A DNA stretch of 64,000 bases from Escherichia coli. GTDB lineage: Bacteria > Pseudomonadota > Gammaproteobacteria > Enterobacterales > Enterobacteriaceae. The stretch lies in assembly GCF_024502345.1 (NCBI RefSeq), contig NZ_JALDNN010000001.1. One strand, given 5' to 3'. Below the pieces are notes generated by a model, which was not told the origin of the DNA, did not search any database, and saw nothing but the letters and a program-made list of their open reading frames with translations. The translations under genes were made by a program, and so were the position numbers. Of this stretch, positions 1,337 through 6,351 are shown one piece after another (position 1 is the first letter of the stretch; the number at the start of each line of letters is the position of its first letter).

Positions 1337-2674
1337 ATGTCTTCGGATGCTGATGCTCACAAAGTGGGCTTAATCCCCGTCACCCTGATGGTGTCGGGGA
1401 ATATTATGGGGTCAGGTGTTTTTCTGTTACCTGCAAACCTGGCCTCTACTGGCGGGATTGCCATTTATGGATGGTTGGTGACGATTATCGGTGCACTGGG
1501 GCTCTCGATGGTATACGCCAAAATGTCGTTCCTCGACCCAAGTCCTGGTGGTTCTTACGCTTACGCCCGCCGCTGCTTTGGCCCGTTTCTCGGTTATCAA
1601 ACCAACGTCCTCTACTGGCTGGCCTGCTGGATCGGCAATATCGCCATGGTGGTCATTGGCGTAGGATATTTAAGTTACTTCTTCCCGATTCTGAAAGATC
1701 CATTGGTATTAACCATCACCTGCGTCGTGGTGCTGTGGATCTTCGTCCTGCTGAACATTGTCGGTCCGAAAATGATCACCCGTGTGCAGGCCGTTGCCAC
1801 CGTGCTGGCGCTGATCCCCATCGTCGGGATTGCCGTATTTGGCTGGTTCTGGTTTCGTGGTGAAACCTATATGGCGGCATGGAACGTCAGCGGCCTGGGC
1901 ACCTTCGGTGCAATTCAAAGTACCCTTAACGTTACGCTGTGGTCGTTCATCGGTGTGGAAAGTGCCTCCGTTGCCGCAGGTGTGGTGAAAAACCCGAAAC
2001 GCAACGTCCCTATAGCCACCATTGGTGGGGTATTGATTGCCGCCGTTTGCTATGTGCTCTCCACCACCGCGATTATGGGGATGATCCCTAATGCCGCACT
2101 GCGCGTTTCTGCCTCGCCATTCGGTGATGCCGCACGGATGGCGTTGGGTGACACCGCCGGGGCCATCGTTTCCTTCTGCGCAGCTGCGGGTTGCTTAGGT
2201 TCACTGGGCGGCTGGACATTGCTGGCGGGTCAAACGGCGAAAGCCGCTGCCGATGACGGACTGTTCCCACCGATTTTTGCCCGTGTAAATAAAGCGGGTA
2301 CGCCAGTGGCGGGGCTGATTATCGTCGGTATTTTGATGACCATCTTCCAGCTCAGCAGCATTTCACCAAACGCGACCAAAGAATTCGGTCTGGTTTCTTC
2401 CGTCTCGGTCATCTTTACACTGGTGCCATATCTTTACACCTGTGCGGCGTTACTGCTGCTCGGACACGGTCACTTTGGTAAAGCACGCCCGGCATATCTG
2501 GCAGTTACTACCATTGCCTTCCTCTACTGCATCTGGGCCGTGGTGGGGTCCGGGGCGAAAGAGGTTATGTGGTCATTTGTCACCCTGATGGTCATCACCG
2601 CCATGTATGCGCTGAATTACAACCGGCTGCATAAAAACCCGTATCCCTTAGATGCACCAATAAGCAAAGATTAA
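1337..2674 (+). CDS. adiC: Arginine:agmatine antiporter (APC superfamily)
   Basis: 445-aa polytopic membrane ORF; recognised N-terminus and length. Confidence 0.93.
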
Positions 2675-2698
2675 TTCCCCTTAATCCAGCAAAGATAA

Positions 2699-2738
2699 AA
2701 GCCAACCTTAAGAACTTAAGGTTGGCTTAATTTTGCTT
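2699..2738 (+). terminator. Hairpin terminator after adiC
   Basis: Inverted repeat gccaaccttaag/cttaaggttggc followed by a T-rich tract. Confidence 0.5.
2715..2731 (+). promoter_or_regulatory. BasR/PmrA box upstream of eptA
   Basis: Direct repeat CTTAAG-N5-CTTAAT about 47 bp upstream of the eptA ATG. Confidence 0.55.
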
Positions 2739-2777
2739 TGCGAGCATATGCGCACTTTGTTCGATGGAAACACCGTG

Positions 2778-4421
2778 ATGTTGAAGCGCCTACTAAAAAG
2801 ACCCTCTTTGAATTTACTCGCCTGGCTATTGTTGGCCGCTTTTTATATCTCTATCTGCCTGAATATTGCCTTTTTTAAACAGGTGTTGCAGGCGCTGCCG
2901 CTGGACTCGCTGCATACCGTACTGGTTTTCTTGTCGATGCCGGTCGTCGCCTTCAGCGTGATTAATATTGTCCTGACACTAAGCTCTTTCTTATGGCTTA
3001 ATCGACCGCTGGCCTGCCTGTTTATTCTGGTTGGCGCGGCTGCACAATATTTCATAATGACTTACGGCATCGTCATCGACCGCTCGATGATTGCCAATAT
3101 TATTGATACCACTCCGGCAGAAAGCTATGCGCTGATGACACCGCAAATGTTATTAACGCTGGGATTCAGCGGCGTGCTTGCTGCGCTGATTGCCTGCTGG
3201 ATTAAAATCAAACCTGCCACCTCGCGTCTGCGCAGTGTTCTTTTCCGTGGAGCCAATATTCTGGTTTCTGTACTGCTGATTTTGCTGGTAGCCGCACTAT
3301 TTTATAAAGACTACGCCTCGTTGTTCCGCAACAACAAAGAGCTGGTGAAGTCCTTAAGCCCCTCTAACAGCATTGTTGCCAGCTGGTCATGGTACTCCCA
3401 TCAGCGACTGGCAAATCTGCCGCTGGTGCGAATTGGTGAAGACGCGCACCGCAACCCGTTAATGCAGAACGAAAAACGTAAAAATTTGACCATCCTGATT
3501 GTCGGCGAAACCTCGCGGGCGGAGAACTTCTCCCTCAACGGCTACCCGCGTGAAACTAACCCGCGGCTGGCGAAAGATAACGTGGTCTATTTCCCTAATA
3601 CCGCATCTTGCGGCACGGCAACGGCAGTTTCAGTACCGTGCATGTTCTCGGATATGCCGCGAGAGCACTACAAAGAAGAGCTGGCACAGCACCAGGAAGG
3701 CGTGCTGGATATCATTCAGCGAGCGGGCATCAACGTGCTGTGGAATGACAACGATGGCGGCTGTAAAGGTGCCTGCGACCGCGTGCCTCACCAGAACGTC
3801 ACCGCGCTGAATCTGCCTGATCAGTGCATCAACGGCGAATGCTATGACGAAGTGCTGTTCCACGGGCTGGAAGAGTACATCAATAACCTGCAGGGTGATG
3901 GCGTGATTGTCTTACACACCATCGGCAGCCACGGTCCGACCTATTACAACCGCTATCCGCCGCAGTTCAGGAAATTTACCCCAACCTGCGACACCAATGA
4001 GATCCAGACCTGTACCAAAGAGCAACTGGTGAACACTTACGACAACACGCTGGTTTACGTCGACTATATTGTTGATAAAGCGATTAATCTGCTGAAAGAA
4101 CATCAGGATAAATTTACCACCAGCCTGGTTTATCTTTCTGACCACGGTGAATCGTTAGGTGAAAATGGCATCTATCTGCACGGTCTGCCTTATGCCATCG
4201 CCCCGGATAGCCAAAAACAGGTGCCGATGCTGCTGTGGCTGTCGGAGGATTATCAAAAACGGTATCAGGTTGACCAGAACTGCCTGCAAAAACAGGCGCA
4301 AACGCAACACTATTCACAAGACAATTTATTCTCCACGCTATTGGGATTAACTGGCGTTGAGACGAAGTATTACCAGGCTGCGGATGATATTCTGCAAACT
4401 TGCAGGAGAGTGAGTGAATGA
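2778..4421 (+). CDS. eptA: Lipid A phosphoethanolamine transferase
   Basis: 547-aa product from ATG 2778 (tool ORF begins 15 codons earlier); N-terminal membrane region plus sulfatase-like domain; overlaps basR start by 4 nt. Confidence 0.92.
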
Positions 4422-5095: not shown

Positions 5096-6187
5096 ATGCG
5101 TTTTCTGCGCCGACCAATATCGCTGCGCCAACGGCTGATATTGACCATCGGGGCCATTTTGTTGGTGTTTGAGCTGATCAGCGTCTTCTGGCTATGGCAT
5201 GAAAGTACCGAGCAGATTCAGCTGTTTGAGCAGGCGCTACGCGACAATCGCAACAACGATCGCCACATCATGCGTGAGATCCGCGAGGCGGTCGCCAGCC
5301 TGATTGTCCCCGGCGTCTTTATGGTCAGCCTGACGCTATTTATCTGCTATCAGGCGGTACGCCGCATCACCCGCCCGCTGGCGGAGCTGCAAAAAGAGCT
5401 GGAAGCGCGCACCGCCGACAACTTAACGCCCATTGCCATTCACAGCGCCACCCTCGAAATCGAAGCGGTGGTTTCAGCGTTAAACGATCTGGTCAGTCGC
5501 CTGACCAGCACGCTGGATAACGAAAGGTTGTTTACCGCTGACGTCGCGCACGAACTGCGAACGCCACTGGCGGGGGTACGTTTGCATCTGGAACTGCTGG
5601 CGAAAACGCATCACATTGATGTAGCACCGTTAGTGGCACGGCTTGATCAGATGATGGAGAGCGTCTCCCAGCTGCTGCAACTGGCGCGTGCCGGACAGTC
5701 ATTTTCTTCCGGTAATTATCAACATGTAAAACTGCTGGAAGATGTCATTCTCCCCTCGTATGACGAACTCAGTACCATGCTCGACCAGCGACAGCAAACC
5801 CTGCTATTGCCAGAGAGCACCGCCGACATCACCGTTCAGGGTGATGCAACCCTGCTGCGGATGTTATTGCGAAACCTGGTAGAAAACGCCCATCGTTACA
5901 GCCCGCAAGGCAGCAACATTATGATTAAGCTGCAAGAAGATGGCGGAGCGGTCATGGCAGTTGAAGATGAAGGACCAGGTATTGATGAGAGTAAATGCGG
6001 GGAGTTGAGTAAAGCGTTTGTACGTATGGACAGCCGTTATGGCGGGATTGGTCTGGGGTTAAGTATTGTCAGCCGCATTACACAGTTGCATCACGGGCAG
6101 TTTTTCCTGCAAAACCGGCAAGAGACTTCCGGCACGCGGGCCTGGGTACGGCTGAAGAAAGATCAGAACGTGGCAAACCAGATATAA
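5096..6187 (+). CDS. basS: Two-component sensor histidine kinase
   Basis: HisKA H-box (ADVAHELRTPL) and ATPase motifs; start at ATG 5096 or TTG 5087. Confidence 0.92.
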   Translation: MRFLRRPISLRQRLILTIGAILLVFELISVFWLWHESTEQIQLFEQALRDNRNNDRHIMREIREAVASLIVPGVFMVSLTLFICYQAVRRITRPLAELQKELEARTADNLTPIAIHSATLEIEAVVSALNDLVSRLTSTLDNERLFTADVAHELRTPLAGVRLHLELLAKTHHIDVAPLVARLDQMMESVSQLLQLARAGQSFSSGNYQHVKLLEDVILPSYDELSTMLDQRQQTLLLPESTADITVQGDATLLRMLLRNLVENAHRYSPQGSNIMIKLQEDGGAVMAVEDEGPGIDESKCGELSKAFVRMDSRYGGIGLGLSIVSRITQLHHGQFFLQNRQETSGTRAWVRLKKDQNVANQI

Positions 6188-6252
6188 AGAAAGCTGCTGA
6201 CCACCAGCACGCTGAACACGGTAGTTAAACTTTCATAAACACGGTTTTTCAT
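6163..6252 (-). CDS. pmrR: 29-aa small membrane protein PmrR, antisense-overlapping the basS 3' end
   Basis: Manual translation gives MKNRVYESLTTVFSVLVVSSFLYIWFATF; 25-nt convergent overlap with basS. Confidence 0.7.
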   Translation of the reverse strand: MKNRVYESLTTVFSVLVVSSFLYIWFATF

Positions 6253-6296
6253 TGCACTCTCCTCCGTTAACCTGGAGGAGAGTATGCGCGTCAGAG

Positions 6297-6313
6297 ATTA
6301 AGTGAACCTTAAG
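6297..6313 (-). promoter_or_regulatory. BasR/PmrA box upstream of pmrR
   Basis: On the minus strand reads CTTAAG-N5-CTTAAT, about 45 bp upstream of the pmrR ATG. Confidence 0.5.
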
Positions 6314-6322
6314 AGTTCAATT

Positions 6323-6351
6323 GGCCTGATAAGACAGCGTTACATCAGGCC
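6323..6351. repeat. REP-like palindrome between basS/pmrR and proP
   Basis: ggcctgat...atcaggcc inverted repeat. Confidence 0.5.

Follow-up and report, generated by a model that had tools for sequence, protein, structure and literature searches.

Does one short segment of DNA between two neighbouring genes serve both of them, as the transcription terminator of the first and as the regulator-binding site of the second? The spacer between adiC and eptA raises this question within the 64,000-nucleotide stretch of Escherichia coli DNA analyzed here (the window, whose positions are used throughout). An earlier note on this DNA had assigned one hairpin-forming segment to both roles, as terminator RNA for adiC and as a binding site of the response regulator BasR ahead of eptA-basRS.

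The adiC-eptA spacer and its palindrome

Annotation under genome matches and in K-12 identifies this region of the window as the E. coli adiC-eptA-basRS locus. The arginine:agmatine antiporter gene adiC is an open reading frame at 1337-2674 (+ strand), annotated as such in E. coli genomes and K-12; its stop codon ends at 2674, and its transcript is the one that a hairpin at 2699-2728 would end. The open reading frame at 2778-4421 (+ strand, 547 aa) corresponds in the E. coli and K-12 annotation to eptA, the first gene of eptA-basRS, leaving a gap of 103 bases between two genes on the same strand. A 501-nt query around the hairpin and the box matched 5412 of 5426 complete E. coli genomes, where the matching stretch carries adiC and eptA annotations, and 5376 of 5411 genomes are identical across 2699-2754. 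Setting this identity against that of the neighbouring 56 nt was uninformative, as most of the difference in the neighbour comes from a single common SNP, at which the window has the minority allele. The spacer of K-12 MG1655 (K-12 coordinate = 4338368 minus window position) departs from the window at one base, 2694, and the stretch with the hairpin, box, and promoter is identical.

The first 24 nt past the adiC stop codon (2675-2698, + strand), delimited by a repeat search and an Escherichia comparison, are variable. They contain a lone CTTAAT (2681-2686), and the last 12 nt of adiC (2663-2674) recur as a direct repeat at 2688-2699. A comparison of seven Escherichia lineages found variation at 9 of 19 sites in 2680-2698, compared to 1 of 14 in the adjacent left arm of the hairpin.

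All of the positions given in the earlier note proved correct when the window sequence was re-read, including a stem in which GCCAACCTTAAG (2701-2712) is complementary to CTTAAGGTTGGC (2715-2726). The full perfect inverted repeat is 14 nt, 2699-2712 with 2715-2728, separated by a 2-nt gap. Its left (5') arm AAGCCAACCTTAAG (2699-2712, + strand) is supported by the repeat, the predicted fold, and the Escherichia comparison, and its right (3') arm CTTAAGGTTGGCTT (2715-2728, + strand) by the repeat, the fold, and a terminator scan. The outer part of the left arm (2699-2706) is lineage-specific, being complementary to the 5-nt spacer (N5) of the box described below and unconserved outside of Escherichia and some Citrobacter. 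The 30-nt hairpin alone folds at -17.8 kcal/mol, while the RNA of 2670-2745 reaches -25.9 kcal/mol (z = -6.15, with no equally stable fold among 200 shuffles); the lower energy in context comes from additional pairing of A-rich 2688-2700 with T-rich 2727-2741, which lengthens the palindrome to the 54-nt segment 2688-2741. A search of Rfam returned nothing near a gathering score. By simple arithmetic, the 8 complementary positions beyond the self-complementary CTTAAG, around a fixed centre, give a chance of about 4^-8 for such a palindrome on the box, and coincidence does not account for the perfect 14-nt palindrome found there.

The T-rich tract TTAATTTTGCTTTGC (2727-2741, + strand), recognized from its tail score, the extended structure, and the Escherichia comparison, constitutes both the putative U-tail of a terminator and the 10-nt spacer between the box and the -10 hexamer of eptA. 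None of its 10 sites compared varies among Escherichia.

The eptA promoter and a third half-site

Overlapping the right arm of the hairpin is the PmrA/BasR box CTTAAGGTTGGCTTAAT (2715-2731, + strand), which consists of half-site 1 (CTTAAG, 2715-2720), the spacer GTTGG (2721-2725), and half-site 2 (CTTAAT, 2726-2731); 46 nt separate it from the eptA ATG at 2778. The assignment of this CTTAAG-N5-CTTAAT repeat to BasR control of eptA in the earlier note is borne out by motif counts, conservation, and the literature. The direct repeat has a period of 11 bp, and its pattern YTTAAK-N5-YTTAAK is matched twice across the 64 kb window, where 0.15 matches would be expected, with the second match at 6297-6313 (- strand) upstream of pmrR, another PmrA target. 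A validated member of the PmrA regulon, yjdB/pmrC has been described with the motif CTTAA-N5-CTTAA (PMC1525208); the Salmonella PmrA consensus is a YTTAAK direct repeat (PMC10927774) and E. coli uses the same direct repeat (PMC5053249). Full-text searches of the literature otherwise returned the box sequence only as a primer downstream of pmrB, which corresponds to the pmrR box.

Conservation of the promoter was assessed across 60 loci encoding EptA relatives, with one genome per species. In this set, every member of the Enterobacteriaceae has a box beginning CTTAAGGTT 61-65 nt upstream of the start codon (about -63 relative to the ATG in 50 or more loci), and 46 distinct enterobacterial eptA promoters, from Escherichia to Klebsiella, retain it. 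The alignment of these 46 shows no variation in TTAA (2716-2719), GTT (2721-2723), CTTAA (2726-2730), and A2743. The last of these lies in the -10 hexamer GAGCAT (2742-2747, + strand) predicted from conservation and spacing, as the pattern xAxxAT is at least 90% conserved 10 nt past the box among 55 distinct upstream sequences. The same spacing is present in 50 or more promoters of pmrR orthologues, where the box is followed by 10 nt and cAtACT. A scan for a TTGACA-like -35 element at the eptA promoter found none; a box just upstream of the -10 is the usual architecture where an activator of the OmpR/PhoB family replaces the -35.

The conserved geometry of box and -10 therefore predicts that eptA transcription starts downstream of the box, near a conserved A at 2754 (+ strand, 7 nt past the -10; K-12 4335614). 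The earlier note had named an eptA start upstream of 2715 as an observation that would speak against its proposal. A start of that kind is unlikely, as a scan of the spacer together with the alignment found nothing promoter-like or conserved upstream of 2699.

The inner part of the left arm, which had been read as terminator stem, appears to have a different role. A third TTAA element, an inverted PmrA-type half-site (CTTAAG on the - strand, 2707-2712) recognized from its conservation and motif fit, ends 2 bp upstream of half-site 1. Its TTAA (2708-2711) does not vary in any of the 46 distinct promoters, a conservation equal to that of the recognized half-sites, and it persists regardless of hairpin-forming ability or the presence of a separate terminator. 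Selection on the inner left arm is therefore probably at the level of DNA, and this portion of the supposed terminator stem probably belongs to the eptA promoter, judging from the alignment. The element fits YTTAAK in 38 of the 46 promoters on the - strand and in 17 on the + strand. A third BasR protomer, the C-terminal domain of the RNA polymerase alpha subunit (near -45), or another factor may bind here. The promoters of pmrR have no conservation upstream of the box and the third element is absent from them, thus PmrA boxes do not in general require a third half-site.

Two other interpretations of these bases were discarded. A mirror-image PmrA box on the - strand has a second hexamer, CTTTTA, with only 3 of 6 matches, and the outer left flank is unconserved outside of Escherichia. 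An RcsB box, based on a resemblance to TAAGAAC, conflicts with loop bases that vary between species (AA, TT, AT).

The conservation of the third element allows for a reading in which the palindrome is foremost a DNA operator. BasR or a paralogue such as QseB would bind three PmrA-type half-sites (two direct, one inverted) to tune the autoregulated eptA-basRS promoter, the RNA hairpin would be incidental, and adiC transcription would end by Rho or read through. The invariance of TTAA includes the Klebsiella, Kluyvera, and Raoultella promoters, which have a stem of only 5-7 bp and no U-tract, and this favors an operator, as do the predominant fit on the - strand and a near-copy of the element, TTAGTTTCTTAAGGTT, in the same register at K-12 arnB. 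The first footprinting study in Salmonella reportedly described the PmrA site as an imperfect inverted repeat, TTAAKTTCTTAAKGTT, which we take to be exactly the third element plus half-site 1, and the short palindrome in the PmrA site is therefore probably an old observation. However, a hexameric half-site leaves unexplained the 8 bp of further complementarity that reach into the N5 spacer in Escherichia, as well as the extension of the palindrome to 2688-2741 by the A-tract and T-tract. The lack of conservation upstream of the same box in pmrR is also at odds with such an operator, and dimers of the OmpR/PhoB family usually occupy direct repeats, their normal binding sites. Overall, an operator that by itself accounts for the palindrome is regarded as unlikely, and the invariant inverted third half-site is the one point that is mildly new.

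The hairpin downstream of adiC

A terminator scan flagged the hairpin on both strands as the only terminator-like site in the adiC-eptA spacer. It begins 24 nt past the adiC stop codon and is followed by a U-rich tail, UUAAUUUUGCUUU, with a TransTermHP-style score of -2.6 to -3.8 depending on the assumed stem end; the U-tract is imperfect, with an AA interruption directly past the stem. The convergent units on both sides that characterize a bidirectional terminator are not found here, yet the hairpin still scores on the - strand. The supplements of genome-wide studies that were searched for 3' ends, operons, and start sites hold no entries for adiC or eptA, probably because adiC is silent in standard media. 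A terminator role for adiC in Escherichia is plausible on these features of the sequence.

The distribution of the hairpin among genera is uneven. The gene upstream of eptA is co-directional in every case examined, but its identity depends on the lineage: it is adiC in some and fumB in Citrobacter koseri, yjdF in Intestinirhabdus, and ybhK in Klebsiella, where the ortholog table of a genome-wide study also places K. pneumoniae eptA next to the ortholog of b0780 (ybhK). The long hairpin is restricted to Escherichia, some Citrobacter, and Intestinirhabdus, and these lineages have no other terminator-like structure past the stop codon of the upstream gene. In Escherichia and C. amalonaticus, the spacer from stop codon to box is 35-42 nt and holds a box hairpin of -17 to -20 kcal/mol with almost no other structure. 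Conversely, the box hairpin is weak, at -1.6 to -3.6 kcal/mol, in Salmonella and the C. freundii group, whose longer spacers carry a separate upstream REP-like hairpin of -21 to -29 kcal/mol that is GC-rich and lacks a U-tract. A stable stem is lacking in Salmonella, although the T-tract and inner left arm are retained. Only members of the Escherichia/Citrobacter/Salmonella clade have this T-tract past half-site 2. The corresponding sequence in the Klebsiella group (Klebsiella, Kluyvera, Raoultella) is CTTAAAA, with 5-7 bp of A/T-rich complementarity, and the box hairpin is weak in Klebsiella; there is therefore no terminator at the box in these genera, and some loci of the group carry a separate terminator.

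The strengths of the box hairpin and of the upstream hairpin are inversely related (Spearman rho -0.47, p = 0.0016, n = 43, uncorrected for phylogeny), a correlation that probably reflects only three or four independent events. This inverse relation is a further feature for which an operator of three half-sites offers no explanation. Changes on both arms that preserve complementarity were seen as a C-G pair in E. coli that is A-T in three loci (L012, L014, and L052) and as GACAACC/GGTTGTC in a fourth (L024). Formal covariation among orthologues is weak because the right arm is frozen by its role in the box: 76.9% of cells are paired compared to 74.4% in shuffles, and both partners have changed in only two pairs. 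RNA-level selection on the + strand was also considered from an excess of G-U pairs, but this was dropped as uninformative, since 10 of 14 possible left-arm transitions would wobble-pair regardless.

The REP-like hairpins at the equivalent position in Salmonella and the C. freundii group, GC-rich and without U-tracts, suggest selection for some hairpin after adiC, and open the way to a role in mRNA stability. As a REP-like stabilizer of the 3' end or barrier to processing of the adiC mRNA, the hairpin would not terminate transcription, and RNA polymerase would run on into eptA or be stopped further on by Rho. The imperfect U-tract is compatible with this role, but the sequence of A-tract, stem, and T-tract is the canonical architecture of an intrinsic terminator and read-through would cross the eptA promoter directly. 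A stabilizer in place of a terminator is thus quite improbable.

Read-through was also the basis on which the earlier note linked acid-induced adiC to the lipid A modification genes, a link that is pure speculation. Regulated read-through might place eptA-basRS under acid/AdiY control, or BasR bound to the right arm might block polymerase and alter the formation of the adiC 3' end. The only evidence for such coupling is the physical overlap of terminator and box, together with the acid responsiveness of both systems, with PmrAB known to respond to mild acid (PMC1525208). A strong hairpin argues at least as much for insulation of the two genes, and the arrangement is not conserved, as Salmonella, C. 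koseri, Intestinirhabdus, and Klebsiella keep the box beside different neighbours. Full-text searches found no paper linking adiC and eptA expression. Coupling in either form is considered highly improbable.

Shared bases and comparison with known systems

Considered together, the promoter and hairpin evidence makes it likely, as a sequence-based interpretation, that 2688-2754 is a compact dual-use intergenic signal, read as BasR promoter DNA and as adiC terminator RNA. Under this interpretation, phosphorylated BasR would bind the two direct half-sites (2715-2731) head to tail and recruit RNA polymerase to the -10 hexamer GAGCAT of an activator-dependent promoter without a -35 element, such that transcription of eptA-basRS would begin near 2754, with the inverted half-site at 2707-2712 as a putative additional part of the promoter. 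In Escherichia, the adiC RNA of 2699-2728 would form the 14-bp hairpin followed by UUAAUUUUGCUUU, acting as a Rho-independent terminator and as a protector of the adiC 3' end. Transcripts of adiC would end at about 2731-2740 (about -23 to -14 relative to the predicted start), inside the eptA core promoter, and termination at this point would shield the promoter from upstream transcription. BasR/PmrA control of eptA rests on the literature, whereas we infer the actual termination, the start site, and binding at the third element.

The likely origin of the arrangement is the outward extension of a promoter palindrome formed by half-site 1 together with the inverted half-site. The left flank may have come, in the Escherichia lineage and in some related ones, to complement the N5 spacer of the box (GCCAACC/GGTTGGC plus A/T extensions), and the extended palindrome together with the T-rich promoter spacer would then have provided a canonical intrinsic terminator for the upstream gene.

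The proposal of a segment with two uses in the earlier note is thus upheld for the locus, for the box, and for a plausible terminator in Escherichia. It requires amendment in that the terminator is lineage-specific and its stem is in part promoter DNA. Similarly, terminator and box do share bases, but the stem does not simply contain the right arm of the direct repeat as had been described; rather, the right arm of the hairpin holds half-site 1, the N5 spacer, and the CTT of half-site 2.

Both components, a PmrA/BasR box and an intrinsic terminator, are well known, and their overlap is unremarkable intergenic compaction. A full-text literature search on adiC and the eptA promoter found no description of this overlap. 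The picture of PmrA/BasR regulation is unchanged by it, but it provides a clean, small example of how an activator site that already contains a palindrome can give rise to a terminator when that palindrome is extended. Additionally, the division of the 103-bp region, base by base, into promoter and terminator of the neighbouring gene may aid in the design of reporter constructs and in the interpretation of clinical isolates that carry IS insertions or mutations in this promoter.

A more far-reaching version, in which the overlap is functional (polymerase handover to the eptA promoter, or modulation of adiC termination by BasR) and, separately, the three half-sites act as an operator with autoregulation, is held to be rather improbable. 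Should it be true, the extreme-acid arginine system would be mechanically coupled to lipid A modification, and eptA-basRS would have a promoter with autoregulatory behaviour missing from other PmrA promoters such as pmrR.

It is in comparison with known systems that the ordinary and the particular features of the segment can be separated. The promoters of the PmrA regulon (pmrC/eptA, pbgP/arnB, pmrR, ugd) place YTTAAK-N5-YTTAAK 10 nt before the -10 and have no -35, and the eptA promoter analyzed here is built the same way; its box does not differ from known PmrA boxes and is the known site. Set against the pmrR promoter, the invariant inverted half-site is present in eptA only. RNA polymerase can slide and re-initiate near terminators in vitro (PMC6978322, PMC6978380, PMC10372574), and in such recycling systems a terminator lies within a few tens of bp of a co-directional promoter, a geometry shared by adiC-eptA. 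The eptA promoter, however, needs BasR, and the likeness is one of geometry alone. Compared to the intrinsic terminators of E. coli, the adiC hairpin has the same stem, short loop, and U-rich tail, the same upstream A-tract, and the same position shortly after a stop codon, but its stem is relatively A/T-rich (5-6 G-C pairs) and its tail is interrupted by AA. Terminators with an upstream A-tract that also score on the opposite strand are known in E. coli; here, no convergent gene accounts for the good tail on the - strand. The right arm and tail of this terminator would double as the activator site and the promoter spacer of the next gene.

Promoter and reading frame of eptA

Upstream of its annotated start, the eptA frame is open as far as a TTG at 2733 (region 2733–2777), with an in-frame ATG on the way at 2748. 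The conserved -10 element occupies 2742–2747, and start codons this far upstream would therefore fall outside the mRNA; the upstream extension of the frame lacks conservation in Citrobacter and Salmonella.

One of the 5411 genomes carries an IS1 element directly after the PmrA box, at the position corresponding to 2736 of the window. This locus (E. coli strain 1506, NZ_CP059288.1, 2539–3307, equivalent to the window from 2736 onward) has lost the -10 element together with the 5′ portion of eptA; the gene is annotated as a pseudogene, and expression of basRS is left to IS1 or internal promoters. Three records in the comparison look mislabelled or contaminated. The first (L024), titled Chryseobacterium sp. 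18061, holds an eptA promoter and gene of Enterobacteriaceae type (71% identity). The other two (L059 and L060) come from assemblies of a Comamonadaceae and a Methylobacterium; they are contigs of 230–250 bp that match E. coli eptA at 100% identity.

Repeats and strand polarity around the adiC hairpin

The final 12 nt of adiC, including the stop codon (AGCAAAGATTAA, 2663–2674), recur 25 nt downstream as AGCAAAGATAAA at 2688–2699, where the second copy directly abuts the hairpin and supplies its A-rich flank, the pairing partner of the T-tract. This copy may be the relic of a small duplication that contributed to the extended palindrome. Read as a terminator on the - strand, the hairpin (2699–2728) has a score of -4.8 with the tail TTTTATCTTTGC, better than on the + strand, and despite this good score no gene is convergent on it. 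The - strand structure could stop antisense transcripts originating inside eptA; alternatively, its score may be no more than a consequence of the A-tract, which makes the terminator on the + strand stronger.

The variable spacer that separates adiC from the hairpin also contains an additional, lone CTTAAT (2681–2686), 34 bp upstream of half-site 1 of the PmrA box. This motif is present in most Escherichia lineages, has been lost in one of the loci compared (L002), and is absent from those outside Escherichia. It is probably a chance occurrence.

A second PmrA box at pmrR

A second, perfect PmrA box (CTTAAGGTTCACTTAAT) lies on the - strand at 6297–6313, within the spacer between the convergent genes basS and proP. 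On this strand the box comes after a REP-like hairpin (approximately 6321–6349) located downstream of proP, and is followed by a 29-codon ORF (MKNRVYESLTTVFSVLVVSSFLYIWFATF) that overlaps the 3′ end of basS and is pmrR (b4703 in K-12); the region concerned is 6164–6349 (- strand). The box and its -10 element are conserved across at least 50 loci. The pmrR and adiC/eptA regions share a common order of gene, hairpin, box, and target, but the hairpin at pmrR is separate from the box, whereas at adiC/eptA the two overlap.
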